A stretch of 19,349 bases of DNA from a virus (Duplodnaviria; Heunggongvirae; Uroviricota; Caudoviricetes). Each line of letters starts with the position of its first letter. Within the stretch, counting starts at the first letter, position 1. The notes under the pieces are model-generated. The model was not told where the DNA came from. It ran no database searches and worked only from the letters and a program-made list of their open reading frames with translations. The position numbers and the translations under genes were made by a program. Shown in pieces: positions 2,919 to 19,349 of this stretch. The stretch lies in the IMG/VR virus record IMGVR_UViG_2576861133_000001. One strand, written 5' to 3'.

Positions 2919-3259
2919 CAGTTCACCACCTGCTCAATCGTACAACTGAAATCACTGTGCCTGGCGTTATCTGTGACGCTCCACTCCCGGCACACCACCC
3001 TCACCGTCAGGTTATGTTTCGGCGGTCGCCACAAAAAGGCACGGTAACCACCATGCCACGATAAAAATTCATCCAGCCAGCGCCGGGTTGGTTCATCCGT
3101 CACCCGGAACACCGCCTGAAACGTCTTCAGTCTGGCATTAAGTCCCGTCGGTCGGCGCTGTTCATAACCGTCACCAAACCGAACCCTCACCACCGACGGT
3201 TTCTCACTCACCTGCATCCCTTCACGCGGGACCAGATGCAGCGTTTTTATCTCAGCCAC
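2918..3259 (-). CDS. M: Lambda-type minor tail protein M
   Basis: 113 aa with a GTG start at 3259; PSVVRVRFGDGY and C-terminal EQVVN match recalled lambda gpM; the start overlaps the tape-measure stop. Confidence 0.8.
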   Translation of the reverse strand: MAEIKTLHLVPREGMQVSEKPSVVRVRFGDGYEQRRPTGLNARLKTFQAVFRVTDEPTRRWLDEFLSWHGGYRAFLWRPPKHNLTVRVVCREWSVTDNARHSDFSCTIEQVVN

Positions 3260-6200
3260 TCAGCATTCCTCCGTCACGTCGCATGGACAGCATCACCGCC
3301 TGCACCCGCTGGTCAATCAGCTGCACAAGACTGCCTGCCGCCTCCGCCCCTATCTGTCCGTTAGCCCCGTCATTCTGAATGGCGATGTGGTAGACCGGGG
3401 AATACACCAGACCGGCACTGCCGTTCATACTGCCCACCGCGCGTACGCCCAGCGAGCCATCCGCCGCCCGGGTCAGGGGCATAATGGCTTCAGGTCCGGC
3501 TTCCCCCATCAGCCCGGCCCCTTTTGCAAACGCAAAGTACGTGGGCGTGTCCACAATGCTGTTGCTGTACGCACTCAGGTTTGCCGAGGTATACACGCCG
3601 CCTTTTGCATTGGCCACCGCACCGCCCAGCCAGTCACCAATGCTGCCAATAAATCCTCCCGCACCGGACATACCGTTTGCCGCCGTCTTAATTCCGTTGA
3701 CAATCGCAGCATTCATAAGAACTTTTGAGATTTCCTGCAGTACGGATGAGGCCCAGTTGCGCCATTCCACTTTGTTTCCGTTCAGCATCTCCGTGATGTT
3801 ATTCACCATCCCTGAGATACCCTCCGTCGCAAGCTGTGCTGCCTGTGAGGCGTAATCGGATGCATTGTCCACCCAGTTACTGAGCCCCTCCTGCAAGCCT
3901 TTCTGCCAGTCCGCACGCTGCGCATCCGATTCGGCATAAAAGGCTGCCTGGTCCTTAAGGCGTTCGCTCAGATACTGCGCGTTCTGTGCCCGTGCCTGTC
4001 TGTAAAAATCCTCACTGATATCCCCGGTCTGATACTGAGACTGAAGGTCCGCATCCTTCTGGCGGAAGCTGTCACGGATCTGCTGCAACTCCCGCATGCG
4101 TTCCCTGGCTCGTTCTCCCTGCCCGTATCCCAGCAGTTCGGCTTCATTTGATGCACGCGCAGCCACATTATCATTCTTCAGGGTCTCTTCCCGGGATCGC
4201 AACTGTTCCCGGATTTTTTGCTGGTCAATCAGGGCCGCGTTACGCAGCAGTTCCTGCTTCTGCATCTCCGTCAGGGTTTTCAGTTCGCCCTGCGCAGTCT
4301 GGTACTTCAGCTTCGCCAGCTCTGTATTCTGACCCGCCAGTGCCAGTTGCTCTTTCTGCTGCTTCAGTAGCCGGGAAAAACTGTCTTCCGCTTTTTCCGT
4401 CTCTGATTTTCCACCCCGGGATTTAGGTTTGTTCGCCTCGTTATTACGCCAGGCTTCCAGAGCATTACTGATATAACGCTGTCTCGCCTCCTGATACGAA
4501 TCCCCCACAAAACCAAGGTCATCCGCCGCATACCCCAGCCGGGCACGCTCTTTTTCCTCCCCCTTCAGTCGGGACAGGGCCAGCTCACGTTCTGTTTTTG
4601 TCAGGGCGCTCTGCTGTTTATCATCCAGGGTGGCCTGCGGCAGCCGTAACGGTACATTCACCAGTCCCTGACGCTGCTGAAGCAGTTCATTCCCCAGCCC
4701 CAGCAGACGGTTGAATTCCGTATGCTGACCGTTCATAACCAGCATGGACTGGTACACCTTATTCTGCTCTGCCGCCTGCTGACGAATTAACGCCACACGA
4801 CGGTCTTCCAGCCCGGCAAGCACATCCTGAATGGACTGCGCTTTTTCCTGCATCTGTGCCAGACGGGACTGCTCAACGGCAAGCTGCTCTGTTGCCTGAG
4901 AAAGCCCTTCCGTCACGGTCTTCACCGATGTCAGATGGTTTATCATGAATCCGTCACCGGTTGTCCAGCCAGGGTTAGCCAGAACATACTGATATCCAGC
5001 GATTTTTTCCTGCAGGGATTTCACCCGGCTGGCCTGTTCATCAATCAGCCGGTTCTGCTCTGCCAGCGCCGCCCGTGTTCGTCCTTCATTATCTGAGGCT
5101 TCAGGCAAAGACATTGACGGCGTTTTATGCGCGATTTCATCTATCGTCAGTGCATACTGGCGCGCTGACTCCCTGGCCTGCTCCTGATTCTGGTACAGCG
5201 TATACCATGCTGCTGCCCCCAGCATCACCAGTCCGGGTACGCCACCAACCAGTCCCAACGCACCAGTCATCAGACGTGAGCCCACCGCCGTTGTACTGTT
5301 CAGCTCATTCTGGGCTGCGGTTCTGGCAGCAATATTTCTGTTCAGGCGTTCCTGTGTGGCCGCCAGACGGGCTTCTGCAGCAATCTGCATCTCCGTCCCG
5401 CGGGCTGCCGCCACAGCCTGCTGTGCACGGTACACGGCTGCCCTTGCCCGCGCCGTGGCAATCTGCGTCCCCCTGAGCTGTGCTTCCGCCAGTGCCACTT
5501 CATTACGTGCTGCCGTCACAAGTCCTGCCGTGGCAGACACCGCTCCGGAGGCCATATTGCCAAAGTACCGGGCAACCCCGACGGCAACCAGCGCCCCCGC
5601 GGCTGTTGCCACATTATCAATATTACCGGCAACACCGTTCAGCACGCCGGAGAGCGTTTTCGTCGCTCCGCTGGCTTCATTCGCGCCACCCACCCAGGCC
5701 ATAAAGGCGTTTTCCACCTTTGTGATCCCGTCAGAGACCGTTTCCGGCATGGCGGCATATTCATCACGCAATACCCCCAGCTGGCTGATTAACGCAGGAA
5801 CGACTTTATCCGCCGTCAGTTTGCCGTCGTCCGCCATCGCCTTAAGGTCTTTACGGGCCACGCCCATACCCGCAGCCAGTGCACGTACGATCCGGTCTCC
5901 GCTTTCATTGACCGAATTAAATTCCTCACCGCGTAACACACCCTGTGCCAGCGCCTGGCTGAACTGGGTGATCACCGAGCCCGCCTCTGCCGTACTGGCA
6001 CCGGAGATTTTCAGCCCCGTGGAAATGGCCTCCGTCACCTTCAGCACATCATCAGCACTGTAACCATATTCACGCATTGAGGCTGCCGAGCGGGCAAACA
6101 GGGCCGCATTATCTGAAAATGCCGTGCCCGTCCGCTGGCTGATATCCATCAGCACTTTCTGTGATGACGAAAATTCATCGGATGACTGCGACGCCTGTTT

Positions 6201-14283: not shown

Positions 14284-15945
14284 TTATATGAAAAAAACCG
14301 CATATTCTTTCTTTTTCGGTTCCGGGTTAAGGGACATCAGGGAGACCGCATTGAACAGCGCCATCAGCGGGTCAATTTTTCCCCGTCCACTGGCCTGTTT
14401 GGTGATAAGAATGGCGTTACCTTTAGGCTCCACCCGGGCATTGCCGACACACCAGGCCATCAGGGGCTGGTCACCATGCACCAGCACCCCTTCAGCCAGT
14501 TTGCGCTCGGTGGTTTTAATGGCCCCGCCCAGTTTCCAGCCCTGGCTTATCCCCACCACAATTCCGTCGGGGATCCCGGCTTCCGCCAGTGAATCCAGAA
14601 TCTGCCCCACCCCTGACGGGTCAATACCGATATGGTCCAGTAACTCAGCCTCATGAATGCGACGCACATATTCCGCCACTTCCGCCGTGTCATCCCCGAC
14701 ACGCCGGACAATGGTCATATCTCCACAGGCAACAAGATCCTGAAACCGGGACGCCTCGCTCTTCCGTCGGACCACCGCGGTTTCATGCGCCCAGGCATGG
14801 CCCCAGCCCAGCCATTCGCGGGTCTCCCGGTCACGCCCAATCACATACATCCCCAGCAGATCATCCAGCCCTCCGCCGTCAATCCCCACCGTCACCACAT
14901 CAGCACGACGCAGGATATCGTCCAGGCTGATACAACGGCCCTGCTCTTCCCAGAAATCAGCCCCCGCCCAGCGGTCAGAGCGCAGGGCAAGACCAATTTC
15001 CACATTGGCGTGTTTTGACATGAACCCCCGGAATGTCTCTTCACCGGCTTCCCGGGCTTTACGGTACTCCCGGTACAGAAAGGCCTCATCCACTGAATAG
15101 CCGAGATTCGGATTGACCATGGCGAGGTTTTCCATCAGCAGGTTAGTCCCGCTTTCCACCATTTCAGGAGGGTGTTCAAATATCACCGGCAGAAAGTGCG
15201 GATCATGAATTTTGCCGTCGCGCACATCCCGGGCGTACTGCAGTTTCTGTCTGAACACCCCGGCGGGCGGTTCATTCGACTGGGTGGTCGTATACACCAC
15301 AAACCCTTCCGGGCGGGAGGCAAGGCCGCCTATGGCTTCACGTAACATGTCCTCCGCCTTGCACTGCTTGCCAAACAGCCACAACTCATCAATCAGCGTA
15401 CCCACGGACTTGATACCGGACACCGTATTCGGATCGGCTGCCACCACCTTCAGGGTGGTGTCCGTCACTCGGTGGGTGATGGTCCGGATATGGGTCTGTA
15501 CCTGGCAGAGGTCATCCAGATCATCGTCACGTCGTACCATATCCCGGGCAGGGTTGAAGGCGTTGGCCGCCACCTCCACAGTCGGGGCCAGAATCGTGTA
15601 ACCCGCCGCCTGCCGCCAGTTCAGTAACAGTGCAGTCATCATGATCCCCGCGGCCAGCGTGGACTTCGAGTTTTTCTTGGGGATAAGGATAAAAACTTCC
15701 TTGATATGGCGTACACCGGTCTGCGCATCGTAGGAGCCAAACAGGGCCGCCACCAGGTCAAACACCCACGGTGCACAGGACTCCCCGAACGTAGGGCTAC
15801 CAGGTGCATCCACAATCCGCAGTTGTTTAAAAATCGCCAGGGCATGTGCGGCCTCGTCCGGATAAATCGGATCCGGAATAATCGACAGCCCCTTTTTCAG
15901 GCGCTCTGCCCAGTCCGGGCAGGCTGTGCTCCATACAGGTATCAT
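14284..15945 (-). CDS. Terminase large subunit
   Basis: 553 aa; Walker-A-like LIPKKNSKST; C-terminal nuclease-like region; ATG overlaps the small-subunit stop as ATGA. Confidence 0.85.
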   Translation of the reverse strand: MIPVWSTACPDWAERLKKGLSIIPDPIYPDEAAHALAIFKQLRIVDAPGSPTFGESCAPWVFDLVAALFGSYDAQTGVRHIKEVFILIPKKNSKSTLAAGIMMTALLLNWRQAAGYTILAPTVEVAANAFNPARDMVRRDDDLDDLCQVQTHIRTITHRVTDTTLKVVAADPNTVSGIKSVGTLIDELWLFGKQCKAEDMLREAIGGLASRPEGFVVYTTTQSNEPPAGVFRQKLQYARDVRDGKIHDPHFLPVIFEHPPEMVESGTNLLMENLAMVNPNLGYSVDEAFLYREYRKAREAGEETFRGFMSKHANVEIGLALRSDRWAGADFWEEQGRCISLDDILRRADVVTVGIDGGGLDDLLGMYVIGRDRETREWLGWGHAWAHETAVVRRKSEASRFQDLVACGDMTIVRRVGDDTAEVAEYVRRIHEAELLDHIGIDPSGVGQILDSLAEAGIPDGIVVGISQGWKLGGAIKTTERKLAEGVLVHGDQPLMAWCVGNARVEPKGNAILITKQASGRGKIDPLMALFNAVSLMSLNPEPKKKEYAVFFI

Positions 15946-16505
15946 CCGTTGCCCTCATTATCGTTATTCACCACCAGTCGGGGGGGCGGTGGCACCGCAA
16001 AACGGTTAGCCGCTTTTTTCGCGGCATCACCTTTTGCCGATTTTTTCCCGGTATCCCCTTTTTTATGGTGCGTGAACTGCGCCAGACGCCAGGCCGCATC
16101 CAGTGCCAGTTTCGGATCAATGCAGAGGTTTTCCACCAGGATCCGCCCCATGGCTTTCACCGGATCGGGAAGACCATCCTCCATATATTCAATACCAGGA
16201 GACATCACCGCGGACGGTGGCATCTCCAGATTGTTTTCGTCCGGCTGTGGTATTGCAGCCGCCTCACGGCGACGGGGTTTATCCTCCTGCTCTGATTTTT
16301 TCTGCCGGTAAACAGGAACCTCATCCACCTCCACCGTCTCGCATTGTTTACGGGCTATAAACGCAAGCACCTCAGGATCTTTTGCCAGCTGCGAGCCTTT
16401 AACCCTGGCGGTCTTCGCCGAATAACCGGCGGCAATGGCTGACGCTGTTTTGTTTTTCCCGGACATGAGCGCCAGCGCAAATTTTCGTTTTTGCGTTGTC
16501 AGCAC
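15942..16505 (-). CDS. Terminase small subunit (Terminase_2-type HTH N-terminus)
   Basis: 187 aa; GTG start at 16505 preceded by GGAGGAGG; N-terminus LTTQKRKFALALMSGKNKTASAIAAGYSAKTA resembles small-terminase DNA-binding domains. Confidence 0.75.
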   Translation of the reverse strand: MLTTQKRKFALALMSGKNKTASAIAAGYSAKTARVKGSQLAKDPEVLAFIARKQCETVEVDEVPVYRQKKSEQEDKPRRREAAAIPQPDENNLEMPPSAVMSPGIEYMEDGLPDPVKAMGRILVENLCIDPKLALDAAWRLAQFTHHKKGDTGKKSAKGDAAKKAANRFAVPPPPRLVVNNDNEGNG

Positions 16506-16795: not shown

Positions 16796-17161
16796 TTACA
16801 GTCCGATGATGTCGTCCTCTCTGCCACTACCTCCGGACACCTCCGGCAGCGTCGGGTCCGGCATACCACTCGCCGCTTCACGAGCAGACTTTTGTCGATG
16901 GCATTCGGCACAGAGCGTCCAAAGATTCGTCTCCTCATTACCACCACCGAACTGAAGTGCAATTCGGTGATCGAGTTCACTGTCACAGAGGTCAACCACA
17001 CGACCACAGATACAGCACTGCCCGGCGTCCCTCAGCCAGATATGACGCTTGAGGGAAACACGTGCACTGCCACTGACACGACGCTGCTCCCCCTTCAGAA
17101 TATTCACCCGTCGGGTATTCAGTGTTTTGATTCTGCTCTGGAGTGTACGAAGCTCAGCCAT
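16796..17161 (-). CDS. HNH endonuclease (terminase-associated)
   Basis: 121 aa; zinc-finger-like CCICG...C...DH...N...N...CAECH HNH motif; location immediately upstream of the cos-like region and terminase genes, as in HK97-type packaging modules. Confidence 0.85.
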   Translation of the reverse strand: MAELRTLQSRIKTLNTRRVNILKGEQRRVSGSARVSLKRHIWLRDAGQCCICGRVVDLCDSELDHRIALQFGGGNEETNLWTLCAECHRQKSAREAASGMPDPTLPEVSGGSGREDDIIGL

Positions 17162-17202: not shown

Positions 17203-17403
17203 ATGTCATCGAAAAACCGGACCCGCAGAACCACAACCCGCAATATCCGTTTCCCCAATCACATAATTGAACAGATCAACATCGCCCTTGAGCATAAAGG
17301 GTCCGGTAACTTTTCAGCGTGGGTTATTGAAGCCTGCAGGAGAAGGCTGGCAACAGATGCAACGCATCTGCGCCCGGCCAGCATGACAAATAACGAGAAA
17401 TGA
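17203..17403 (+). CDS. Small ribbon-helix-helix-like protein, possibly YlcI/YnfO-like (DUF3950-type)
   Basis: 66-aa ORF from ATG 17203 with an AAGGAAA ribosome-binding site 5 nt upstream; sequence NIRFPNHIIEQINIALEHKGSGNFSAWVIEACRRRL resembles RHH-type small prophage proteins (recollection); it is the only plus-strand gene in the window. Confidence 0.5.
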   Translation: MSSKNRTRRTTTRNIRFPNHIIEQINIALEHKGSGNFSAWVIEACRRRLATDATHLRPASMTNNEK

Positions 17404-17601: not shown

Positions 17602-17817
17602 TCAACACACTGGCTGTAATACCATGCGGCATTTAGCGGCATTCATCGTACACTCCACGGTTAGCTCTTCATTCGTGGCATTCACCTGAAAGGTCCGGGA
17701 GTGTAATTGCGTACATTTACCACTGAACGAACCTTCAACAAGAACACGACCACGCTGCAAAATACGGAACGGAATTGTTCCCTGAAAAGGTTCTACGGTT
17801 ACCCGTAATTTCTTCAT
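17602..17817 (-). CDS. Hypothetical 71-aa protein translationally coupled to Rz
   Basis: Its ATG (17815-17817) overlaps the Rz stop as ATGA; Cys-containing, no signal peptide, no family recognised. Confidence 0.45.
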
Positions 17818-18308
17818 GTATCCTCCGGATAATAAAAAGCCAGCTTAGTGCACTGAGTGCGGATATATTCCTGCGCCCCTTCCAGCTGCTTCTGCATTGT
17901 CATCAACCGTTCTCTGAGGATGAAATAATCCCGTTCAGCGGTGTCTGCCAGTCGGGGGCCGGTTGCATTATCCACGCTGGAGGTGCCGGTGGCTTCACGC
18001 ACGGTACCGGGGCAGGTGGCGTTGACCCGCAGGCGCTTACGACCAGCGGCAACATCAGCGCGCAGAGTTTCATTTTCAGCTCTCGCATCGGCTAATTCCT
18101 TCGTGTATCTGGCATCAAGCGCAGCGACATCTCGCTGGCGCTGCTGCATGTCAGTAATAGTGGCATTCGCCAGTTTCAGCTCACTGACTTTTTTATCGCG
18201 CTGCGCTTTGTAGGTGATGGCGTTATCGCGGTAATGATTCAGCCCCAGACTAAGCACACCACAGGCTACCAGCATGACAATAATCACCACACACAGAACA
18301 CGGTTCAT
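17814..18308 (-). CDS. Rz: Spanin inner-membrane subunit Rz
   Basis: Start set at ATG 18308 ([14 protein letters not shown]...); [16 protein letters not shown] and [10 protein letters not shown] match recalled lambda Rz; the ORF-track start at 18392 is a GTG extension. Confidence 0.85.
17903..18088 (-). CDS. Rz1: Spanin outer-membrane lipoprotein Rz1, embedded in the +1 frame of Rz
   Basis: 61 aa; lipobox LVVSAC followed by a Pro-rich segment [26 protein letters not shown], very similar to recalled lambda Rz1. Confidence 0.8.
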
Positions 18309-18407
18309 ATCACCACCAACGGATTGCCCAGACCAGAACAGCAATGGCCACAATACGAATGGCAAATGCCATTGCCCGAATAAGTTCAGCACTCATCTTT
18401 TTAAAGT

Positions 18408-18530
18408 TCACGATTTCAGCGCAATGACCAGTTTTGCCAGCCCATACAGCATCGGAGACACAGCAATACCAACAGCCACCCACTTAATAGCAAAAGCCAG
18501 CGCTCTGCTGATGTCATCAGTCACTGTCAC
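18408..18530 (-). CDS. Candidate 40-aa hydrophobic peptide (third of three coupled small ORFs)
   Basis: GTG at 18530 overlaps the stop of the preceding peptide ORF as GTGA; encodes TVTDDISRALAFAIKWVAVGIAVSPMLYGLAKLVIALKS; codon choices look more natural than the overlapping alternative frame. Confidence 0.25.
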   Translation of the reverse strand: MTVTDDISRALAFAIKWVAVGIAVSPMLYGLAKLVIALKS

Positions 18531-18658
18531 CCCAGCAGCCCCGACGAAGACAACATCACCCAGGCGAGGGACAGAAAAAGAGCAACCAGCATTAGTGAAA
18601 ATGAAATACCGACAATCACACACAGGACCTTTGCCGGCGTTATGAGTTTGTCTGACAT
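18527..18658 (-). CDS. Candidate 43-aa single-pass membrane peptide
   Basis: ATG at 18658 preceded by AAGGGG 5 nt upstream; encodes MSDKLITPAKVLCVIVGISFSLMLVALFLSLAWVMLSSSGLLG. Confidence 0.35.
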   Translation of the reverse strand: MSDKLITPAKVLCVIVGISFSLMLVALFLSLAWVMLSSSGLLG

Positions 18659-18660
18659 AG

Positions 18661-18756
18661 CTACCCCTTAATTGCCACAATTAACTGGGATACTACCCAT
18701 AAAAAAGGGATGCTCCAGACCAGCAAAAATTTCCAGTTTGGTAATTGACTAATCAT
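18661..18756 (-). CDS. Candidate 31-aa hydrophobic peptide
   Basis: ATG at 18756 with GGGAG upstream; encodes MISQLPNWKFLLVWSIPFLWVVSQLIVAIKG; its stop lies 2 nt before the next peptide start. Confidence 0.3.
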   Translation of the reverse strand: MISQLPNWKFLLVWSIPFLWVVSQLIVAIKG

Positions 18757-18825
18757 GAGTCGCAACTCCCTAATCAGTTTGCTAAAATCAATCAAGGCAG
18801 CCTCCCATAGCTTACTGCCATAAAA

Positions 18826-18861
18826 ACAAAACCCCGCTTGCTGCCAACAAACGGGGTTTTT
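18826..18861. terminator. Bidirectional rho-independent terminator-like hairpin downstream of the endolysin gene
   Basis: aaaacccccg ... cggggtttt: stem ccccg (18832-18836) / cgggg (18852-18856) extended by A/T pairs, followed by a T-run on plus and an equivalent U-run on minus. Confidence 0.45.
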
Positions 18862-18950
18862 ACTTTTATTCACTTAGGTTTTGCCAGTTCACAGGACTTC
18901 GTGTTATCCGCCCGCGTTGGCCAACCTCATTTTTCAGCAAAATATTCTGC

Positions 18951-19349
18951 TTATCTGTCGATTCCCCAGCACGCCAGCGCGCTCTCCTGGTCACGACGGA
19001 ATACCTGACCGTAACAGTTATTTGAGCGAATACGGCAGTCTCTGCCACCGTCCTTAATCCACCAGCGAATCGCTTCGCATGCTCCCCTGCGATCACCTGC
19101 ATTAATTCGTCTGTAAAACGTCGACGGGAAACACTTACCGGGACCAATGTTGTACGGACAGAATGACGCGATCCCCGCTTTCTGGGGTTCGGTCAATGGC
19201 ACTTTGATGTTTTTCTCCACCCATGCCAGCGCCTTATCACGCTCAATGGCGTTAACCCGGTCGCATTTTTCCTTCGACAACTTCATGCCCGGAACGACAG
19301 GTTTGCCATCCACCAGGATGGCACCGCGGCAGATGGTCCAGATACCCGC
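18951..19349 (-). CDS. Endolysin, GH24 (T4/P21 lysozyme-type), 3' portion; the 5' end lies beyond the window edge
   Basis: The reading frame is open to the window edge; the C-terminal region aligns by eye to the phage 21 / RrrD-type lysozyme pattern (IWTIC.G, SF.YN.G.G.F..ST....IN.GD..GAC...R.W, C.WG). Confidence 0.8.
   Translation of the reverse strand, partial: AGIWTICRGAILVDGKPVVPGMKLSKEKCDRVNAIERDKALAWVEKNIKVPLTEPQKAGIASFCPYNIGPGKCFPSTFYRRINAGDRRGACEAIRWWIKDGGRDCRIRSNNCYGQVFRRDQESALACWGIDR

Follow-up and report, generated by a model that had tools for sequence, protein, structure and literature searches.

Lysis of Gram-negative hosts by phages is described as a process of three steps, in which holin, endolysin, and spanin act, and extra small membrane proteins are common in lysis cassettes and mostly unstudied. 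Here, we analyze a 19,349-nt stretch of a tailed-phage genome (IMG/VR record IMGVR_UViG_2576861133_000001; the whole stretch is referred to as the window) in which 642 bp separate the endolysin stop codon from the gene for the inner-membrane spanin (i-spanin) Rz. We interpret this interval as a mosaic cassette of cargo made up of four small genes, here named a to d, that encode predicted inner-membrane proteins with a single helix each and whose modules are shuffled among prophages. All positions are those of the window, and the genes in its insert part, given here with the neighboring features as open reading frames (ORFs), are all on the minus strand:

18951–19349, minus strand: endolysin gene, 3′ part (the window end cuts the gene), with the stop codon at 18953–18951; from the program-made ORF list
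18818–18860, minus strand: intrinsic-terminator-like hairpin (stem 18860–18828), then TTTTGTTTTT; from a terminator scan
18661–18795, minus strand: ORF a, MIDFSKLIRELRLMISQLPNWKFLLVWSIPFLWVVSQLIVAIKG; 44 aa from TTG 18795, or 31 aa from ATG 18756 (18756–18661); phrog_6632
18527–18658, minus strand: ORF b, 43 aa, MSDKLITPAKVLCVIVGISFSLMLVALFLSLAWVMLSSSGLLG; phrog_4906, RefSeq WP_001280935.1
18408–18530, minus strand: ORF c, VTVTDDISRALAFAIKWVAVGIAVSPMLYGLAKLVIALKS; 40 aa from GTG 18530 or 38 aa from GTG 18524; phrog_1115
18310–18396, minus strand: ORF d, 28 aa; phrog_4493, RefSeq WP_032140280.1
Minus strand, ahead of Rz: GGTGGTGAT-ATG, including the Rz start codon
17814–18308, minus strand: Rz i-spanin gene, 164 aa; PF03245, phrog_13; RefSeq "lysis protein" at 18308–17814
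18088–17903, minus strand: outer-membrane spanin (o-spanin) gene Rz1, embedded in Rz; from the ORF list, lipobox LVVSAC
18780–18788, plus strand: TGCTAAAAT, an extended −10-like motif matching TGNTAWAAT

The endolysin is a GH24 lysozyme whose full-length homologs (L003 and L006) carry an N-terminal segment resembling a signal-anchor-release (SAR) domain, and RefSeq annotates "lysozyme / rrrQ" at this position in a genome that is 100% identical; upstream in identical genomes lie genes for a class II holin, YdfR, and lysozyme. At the other border, the protein encoded at 18308–17814 matches PF03245 over its full length (E = 4e-51), beginning at the N-terminal transmembrane segment, and phrog_13 (E = 1e-77; residues 1–155 against profile positions 1–154), which fixes the downstream border of the insert and leaves ORF d outside Rz. 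Judged by these alignments, by the RefSeq model of the identical genome, and by the Rz starts of homologs, Rz begins at ATG 18308. The GTG-initiated 192-aa "Rz" in the ORF list is 28 codons too long, and its extension overlaps d in another frame. An initial annotation of the window had taken 18392 as the Rz start, which gave a spacing of about 560 bp, and had counted three mini-ORFs; those three exist where it placed them, with 31, 43, and 40 aa and a GTG start for c, and a fourth, d, sits in the stretch that it had assigned to Rz. Whatever the function of the insert, the practical gain is a corrected gene model with four ORFs and revised starts for Rz and ORF a.

The features that had drawn attention to the region were confirmed by measurement. 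The GC content is 0.461 for the 642-bp insert and 0.455 for the interval 18393–18950 compared with 0.566 for the whole window, and the stretch 18600–18899 falls within the lowest 0.5% of the window's 300-nt windows. The best 19-residue Kyte–Doolittle windows of the four ORFs score between 1.9 and 2.9, with values of 2.19 for a, 2.87 for b, which is the most hydrophobic of the four, and 1.90 for c, and these three exceed the usual transmembrane threshold. The stop codon of a and the start codon of b are 2 nt apart, the stop of b overlaps the start of c as GTGA, the stop codon of d (TGA, 18312–18310) ends 1 nt ahead of the Rz ATG, and motifs resembling Shine–Dalgarno (SD) sequences (GGGAG, AAGGGG, and GGGG) precede the ORF starts.

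All four ORFs match PHROG families of unknown function, and b, c, and d correspond to RefSeq coding sequences annotated as hypothetical proteins; neither Pfam nor NCBIfam gave a match for a–d even at e values up to 1. The sequences are, therefore, already present in RefSeq and PHROGs as hypothetical proteins; what seems to be new is the definition of the families with an N-terminal motif linking a with c and d, the modular shuffling, and the recurrence between unrelated endolysins and spanins. For selection analysis, we collected distinct alleles from IMG/VR (160 loci) and from GenBank or assemblies (about 20 loci) and calculated Nei–Gojobori ratios of nonsynonymous to synonymous polymorphism (pN/pS) in every frame. 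The annotated frames of a, c, and d gave 0.24, 0.17, and 0.23, respectively, and the remaining forward frames 0.95–6.9 (about 1 for a, 0.95 and 6.9 for c, and 1.0 and 2.4 for d). For b the annotated frame gave 0.49, the lowest of six, with 0.57 and 0.72 next. The frames are kept over about 20 alleles per family, as opposed to a conserved noncoding spacer with broken frames. These sequence comparisons show a–d to be real genes of three phage families of unknown function.

ORF a encodes a single hydrophobic helix. In its 44-aa form it matches phrog_6632 with an e value of 1.3e-12 over profile positions 2–43 of 45, compared with only 6e-5 for the 31-aa form, and homologs resembling a in two other loci (L211 and L212) match the same PHROG. 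Because this profile and the L212 homolog cover the N-terminal extension, and because the SD sequence GGGAGG (18806–18801) lies 5 nt upstream of TTG 18795, translation of a probably starts at this TTG. The N-terminal motif of a (SKLIRELRLM, compared with IKFIREVRIM in the L212 homolog) is common to the c/d family, which also favors the 44-aa form. A short stem, GGCAG...CTGCC, with GGGAGG in its loop, is predicted to sequester the SD of the first ORF at 18782–18806 on the minus strand; other heads (among L009, L176, and L212) have CCTTG...CAAGG overlapping AAGGAG, and translational control by this predicted fold is possible. ORF b matches phrog_4906 (E = 4.5e-21; profile positions 7–49 of 49), a family confined to phages of Escherichia coli and Shigella, all members of which are named "hypothetical." The 43-codon frame of b is present without gaps in 276 phage records, mostly Shiga toxin (Stx) phages, at 63–100% identity, and is intact in 21 of the 22 distinct alleles. 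Scans with alignments of a and b gave solely near-identical E. coli loci.

Three other frames in the region are open as well. A single 90-aa TTG-initiated protein (18680–18408) in place of b and c, a gene model that the initial annotation had already called uncertain, is barely credible, the frame being open in the window and in some relatives but having a pN/pS of 1.17 and, in some alleles, stop codons over b; moreover, c occurs in other prophages alone with its own start or ahead of b, and b has an ATG start, the AAGGGG motif, and a PHROG family of its own. We regard this ORF as an artifact in which c is extended upstream over b. A 70-aa GTG-initiated ORF (18873–18661), which some phage records carry with a "TPR_REGION domain," crosses the terminator hairpin, and its first 27 residues lie outside the coverage of the family profile. 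Finally, a 123-aa plus-strand ORF (18274–18645) spans module borders that vary among prophages and probably arises as a side effect of T-rich hydrophobic coding on the opposite strand.

ORF c matches phrog_1115 (E = 6e-25) as well as phrog_3246 and phrog_4493, and d matches phrog_4493 (E = 3.8e-6), in both cases over the C-terminal half of the profiles only; given these common PHROGs (1115/3246/4493), c and d are paralogs, d being a short form of a subtype that ends in RWW. Full-length members of the c/d family have 45–60 aa, begin with M-x-x-Y-K-R-I-L-L-R-L-T-M-K-N-G-L-E-x-D-A-P..., continue with a long hydrophobic helix, and end in RWW, ALKS, or ...LK. For the 60-aa form, AlphaFold2 predicts a helix at residues 2–18, a short break, and a long helix at 23–59 (mean predicted local distance difference test score [pLDDT] 78). 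The N-terminal segment is evidently coding because its Ile and Leu codons differ synonymously among the copies from E. coli, Klebsiella, Serratia, and Enterobacter; a start at MKNG (48 aa) for full-length c was accordingly rejected in favor of the upstream start, since the copies in Klebsiella, Serratia, and Enterobacter keep ILLRLT despite synonymous changes. In the alignment, c lacks the first ~20 residues of the 60-aa form. Short forms with the common N termini MSA[DE][FL]IRA make clusters of their own, one representative of which (P0242) is one residue off d. All short alleles of c start with GTG, and at the aligned codon most full-length alleles have GTA and three from Salmonella have TTG (Leu).

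The family is narrow: word-indexed and exhaustive hidden Markov model searches of 1.84 billion representatives found only 25 clusters at 50% identity, the source names are all "hypothetical" or "uncharacterised," and the genera represented are Escherichia, Salmonella, Klebsiella, Serratia, and Enterobacter. A search of Protein Data Bank sequences with the family profile gave weak irrelevant hits only (e values of about 0.4–0.5). Many c/d genes finish with an RWW-stop ending (CGNTGGTGGTGA) and the start codon of the next gene follows after 1–3 nt; this gene is Rz in the window (18306–18321, minus strand) and Sheath_initiator in a Klebsiella myovirus, and such endings lie at about 3160–3180 in L205 and about 3125–3145 in L206. 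The GGTGGTGA of this ending may double as SD for the downstream gene, in which case insertion of the cassette would be nonpolar. In heads of Salmonella and GER2 loci (L176–L178, L007, L214–L217, and L225) an 8-codon upstream ORF (ATG...TGA) has a stop codon overlapping the GTG start of the long c/d form as GTGA, and in the heads of E. coli c genes a 28-nt deletion fuses an in-frame ATG in place of the upstream ORF.

Over this region the window, which belongs to an E. coli prophage, is 100% identical to many chromosomes of the species, among them those of the ST131 strains JJ1887 and 4/1-1 and of O25b:H4 strains. Among 5,426 complete E. coli genomes, 585 contain at least 80% of the arrangement and 2,090 some part of the interval, including ST131-type and Stx prophages. 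As the initial annotation had stated, little space normally separates the endolysin gene (R) from Rz: in the K-12 prophages DLP12 and Qin, which are without the insert, the lysozyme gene overlaps Rz by 4 nt. The gene order and the families of endolysin and Rz/Rz1 are those of the lambdoid cassette (lambda, phage 21, DLP12, and Qin), whereas the overlap of the cryptic prophages DLP12 and Qin is replaced in the window by a 642-bp interval that contains a terminator plus four small ORFs. Elsewhere, the occupancy of the junction differs, with the following arrangements:

R-a-b-c-d-Rz: this window and about 70 IMG/VR loci
R-c(60 aa)-b-Rz: about 70 IMG/VR loci
R-c-d-Rz: found
R-c-b-c-d-Rz: found
R-Ant-a′-b-c-d-Rz: found
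R-Ant-a′-b-Rz: Stx1a phages
R-Ant-b-Rz: Min27 and BP-4795 (ORF50)
R-d(long)-Rz: GER2

The proposal of a variable small-peptide insert in a lambdoid lysis cassette is, therefore, borne out by the comparison with related prophages, except that it is not one single insert but a set of modules that shuffle separately. The Stx phages (933W-type, Min27, BP-4795, and Stx1a) use the same R/Rz junction, where Ant precedes ORFs of the a′ and/or b families, and ORF50 of BP-4795 is a homolog of b. Unlike this "ant" insertion, the window has no ant, and it has a terminator-led head, a long a, and the extra copies c and d.

To describe the genomic contexts of the c/d family, we fetched 275 loci with a family match, a sample that is biased toward E. 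coli. In these loci the family lies mostly between endolysin and spanin, and the neighboring endolysins are of six kinds (GH24 with several subtypes, GH19, GH108, phrog_873-type, M15, and PG_binding_1-type) and the spanins of three (PF03245 Rz, DUF2514/phrog_312, and phrog_214). The position of c/d genes is strongly enriched at the lysis junction, which is also a general cargo site. The DNA N6/N4 methylase gene found among the cargo sits between a c/d-family gene and Rz in L218 (2634–3566) and also in L110 and L122. In a metagenomic contig (L211), two c/d-like genes, a holin gene, an a-like gene, and a SAR endolysin gene occupy one block: at 3001–4185, where these lysis genes immediately follow the major capsid gene, two hairpin-led c/d-like genes come first, then a phrog_920 holin gene, a 51-aa hydrophobic ORF, an a-like gene with an RWW end, and the SAR endolysin gene, so that a short a-like form adjoins the latter. 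In L212 (2880–3470), tandem cassettes, one c/d-like and one a-like, follow a tail-tip gene, and each is preceded by an identical hairpin pair composed of a copy of the upstream gene's terminator and the cassette hairpin, which suggests insertion with duplication of the target terminator.

These distributions bear on whether the genes are morons that act outside lysis, that is, whether their products are made in the lysogen or early in infection and alter the host envelope, for example by blocking DNA entry of other phages. Lambdoid morons such as bor, lom, and the HK97 gene for gp15, a small inner-membrane exclusion protein that blocks the DNA entry of other phages, are extra genes between conserved late genes with deviating composition, a patchy distribution, and small envelope proteins as products. 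The insert resembles them in each of these respects: it parts genes that are adjacent in DLP12 and Qin, differs in base composition, occurs patchily and as modules, and has small envelope proteins as predicted products; in addition, the c/d family occurs at classic cargo sites, namely behind tail-fiber genes, at the ends of prophages, and, in L179, between terminators, and the R|Rz junction hosts other cargo. Classical morons, however, are preceded by a promoter of their own and followed by a terminator, whereas the insert has a terminator in front, no detectable promoter on the coding strand (a sigma-70-like one was absent from every head examined), and no terminator between d and Rz, to which d as the last ORF is tightly coupled. 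Moreover, a, b, d, and the long forms of c and d had no match in PADLOC-DB at e values up to 1. We, therefore, consider a role as morons unlikely.

The head of the cassette is marked by the strong hairpin at 18860–18828, which has 15 pairs, 6 of them G–C. A consensus fold of eight variants from E. coli and Salmonella has a 13-pair stem with compensatory changes at 5 pairs, and with its flanking A-run and T-run the hairpin looks bidirectional. A GC-rich hairpin heads the cassette in every context examined, and in tail contexts it comes after another terminator. On the coding strand, no sigma-70-like promoter was found between the hairpin and the first ORF in a scan of the window and the heads examined, and hits in the promoter scan occur at chance frequency. 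On the opposite strand, TGCTAAAAT points at the hairpin and is the sole match to TGNTAWAAT on either strand of the 19.3-kb window (0.61 expected), which makes it a candidate promoter for a hypothetical antisense RNA of ~75 nt (about 18795–18870, plus strand). This putative RNA folds at −21.9 kcal/mol (z = −3.6). The antisense TATACT/TATAAT is kept in most heads, from E. coli, Salmonella, Klebsiella, Serratia, and Enterobacter, and is lost in L211 and L212; an antisense −35/−10 pair lies at the equivalent place in the heads of L009, L176, and L179. We rejected a universal antisense promoter in the heads because of the loss in L211 and L212 and because the motif coincides with conserved Tyr-Lys-Arg codons next to codons that vary synonymously. 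Another promoter-like antisense site lies at the a/b junction (18652–18681, plus strand; CTGACA, 18 nt, CACAAT, with TG before the −10), and such sites are at chance level in the region (one found, 2.0 expected). Rfam gave no family match in the window beyond a subthreshold chance hit, and a scan of genome contigs with the head motif yielded chance matches only, for example at a transposase gene and pyrH. Elsewhere, a Salmonella prophage with a c-family gene (L176) has two copies of STnc100 (RF02076, 86 bits, above the gathering score) at 45–245 and 977–1201, upstream of the holin gene.

A module resembling type I toxin–antitoxin systems would give the head a different meaning: a, or elsewhere full-length c/d, would be a membrane toxin whose ribosome site is masked by the ~75-nt antisense RNA running from near 18795 to the hairpin at 18828–18860. 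Consistent with this, the products are small and hydrophobic (28–44 aa and thus below 60 aa), the only extended −10 of the window lies antisense in the leader of a and is aimed at a hairpin with T-runs on both sides, the −35/−10 pair recurs in the three heads named above, and the RNA, with its stable fold, would extend over both the SD and the initiation codon of the long forms; because the hairpin follows another terminator in tail-fiber contexts, it would be redundant there as a sense terminator. However, the distant homologs L211 and L212 have lost the antisense −10, and the conserved "TATAAACGA" encodes Y-K-R, followed by I-L-L codons that change synonymously, so that its conservation is mainly at the protein level. 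There is also no promoter for a toxin, no match to Hok/Gef, Ldr, TisB, Ibs, ShoB, or other Pfam toxin families at e values up to 1, no Rfam family, and no excess of promoter-scan hits over chance. Because of the loss in L211/L212 and the coincidence with the Tyr-Lys-Arg codons, we treat the antisense RNA as a minority reading. A toxin–antitoxin function is improbable.

The genes might also be largely functionless passengers, propagated through recombination at the hairpin and retained because they are harmless, with translation of the small ORFs only carrying ribosomes to Rz, and with c and d as decaying, 5′-truncated copies. Several observations fit such decay: c and d lack ~20 N-terminal residues of their full-length relatives, c is frameshifted in phiSTEC1589, b and c are fused in P0094, b is frameshifted at seven loci, many prophages carry none of a–d, and the GGTGGTGA of the RWW-stop may merely supply the SD of the next gene. 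Against it stand the purifying selection on the protein sequences across genera, the conserved N termini of the short forms with the invariant GTG of short c, and the retention of an identical a-b-c-d array in hundreds of genomes, and we regard this explanation as distinctly unlikely, although somewhat less so than a toxin–antitoxin module.

The explanation that we favor, with a probability of a little under one-half (about 0.45), is that a–d are late-expressed accessory proteins of the lysis cassette that reside in the inner membrane. Their function is inferred, and the proposal rests on the finding of no sense promoter and on the translational coupling of the ORFs into Rz. It draws further support from the hairpin ahead of the genes, from the recurrence of the c/d family between endolysins and spanins of different kinds, and from the block of lysis genes in L211. 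With no recognizable promoter of its own and a terminator in front, the cassette would be silent in the lysogen; its transcription would require read-through, starting at the late promoter, by polymerase that Q has modified to resist terminators. Translation of a to d one after another would follow, with ribosomes continuing to Rz, and the products would insert into the inner membrane late in infection in an N-in/C-out orientation. There, they would act not as lysogenic-conversion factors but as accessory factors of the lysis step, for instance by altering the integrity or energization of the membrane and hence the timing or completeness of lysis.

A precedent for such an effect is HokW of the Sakai prophage Sp5, a small membrane toxin that makes lysis come earlier and raises phage release twofold (PMC8621323). 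Like the products proposed here, the toxin of this type I toxin–antitoxin pair, hokW-sokW, is a small hydrophobic inner-membrane protein of a prophage that is made on induction and affects lysis, and it is the closest functional precedent and a possible functional analog of a–d. The window differs in that its ORFs have no similarity to Hok, lie at another location, and form a tandem of four coupled to Rz, and in that its antisense RNA is conjectural. LydB, LydC, and LydD of P1 and gp25 ("releasin") of Mu are reportedly small membrane proteins encoded in or beside the lysis genes that tune the action of the holin or the SAR endolysin. ORFs a–d have no detectable homology to these, and unlike them the c/d family can also accompany non-SAR endolysins (GH19 and GH108) and is found outside lysis cassettes.

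A number of results weigh against a role in lysis. For a–d, no similarity to holins or antiholins was found in Pfam, NCBIfam, or PHROG at e values up to 1, and the proteins have no highly charged C-terminal tail, their flanks being KG, SLAWVMLSSSGLLG, ALKS, and AIRWW; the holin in L211, by contrast, ends in RWRRERKRPPD. Of the functions suggested by the initial annotation, an antiholin or lysis-timing module, a small-protein toxin, or a superinfection-exclusion moron, sequence similarity to known families favors none. No paper on these families came up when the literature was searched with RefSeq and PHROG accessions and by topic; the topic literature supplied background only, and the Pas small RNAs (between the esterase and holin genes) and svsR (at cI) that it describes lie outside the interval. 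In the context sample, the c/d family has eight distinct settings in operons of tail and head structural genes, away from lysis genes: after tail-fiber or assembly genes, after the tail-tip gene J, at the junction of tail tube and chaperone genes, and between baseplate genes of Klebsiella and Serratia myoviruses. A hairpin terminator inside the baseplate operons of such myoviruses (L205 and L208) fits poorly with a cassette that has no internal promoter. Unrelated cargo, namely two Ant types and a DNA methylase, occupies the R|Rz junction as well, and the position may, therefore, reflect a tolerated insertion site and not function. Furthermore, the window has c and d as short forms in which the conserved YKRILLRLT segment at the N terminus is missing, the selection signal on b is weak, and the disrupted alleles of b and c described above point in the same direction.

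Beyond the window, the c/d, a, and b families could represent an undescribed accessory component of the lysis cassettes of Gram-negative phages, a small inner-membrane protein with N-in/C-out topology located between endolysin and i-spanin whatever the family of these, that is silenced by its own upstream terminator (and perhaps by an antisense RNA), translationally coupled to the spanin, and in control of the last lysis steps, such as spanin activation or membrane depolarization. We consider this wider proposal doubtful. Should a–d tune when lysis occurs or how complete it is, phage release would change, as would toxin release in the case of Stx phages; if they are inert passengers or exclusion factors, the R|Rz junction is simply a hot spot for cargo.

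Downstream of the lysis genes, a 71-aa ORF just after Rz (17602–17817, minus strand; RefSeq hypothetical protein WP_000736382.1) matches only positions 100–165 of the 291 positions of phrog_2571 and resembles a piece of a longer gene. A YlcI/YnfO (DUF3950) gene (17203–17403, plus strand) lies on the other strand in the interval from Rz to an HNH endonuclease gene. The HNH endonuclease gene (16796–17161, minus strand) lies immediately upstream of the gene for the small terminase subunit (15942–16505, minus strand) in an HK97-like arrangement.

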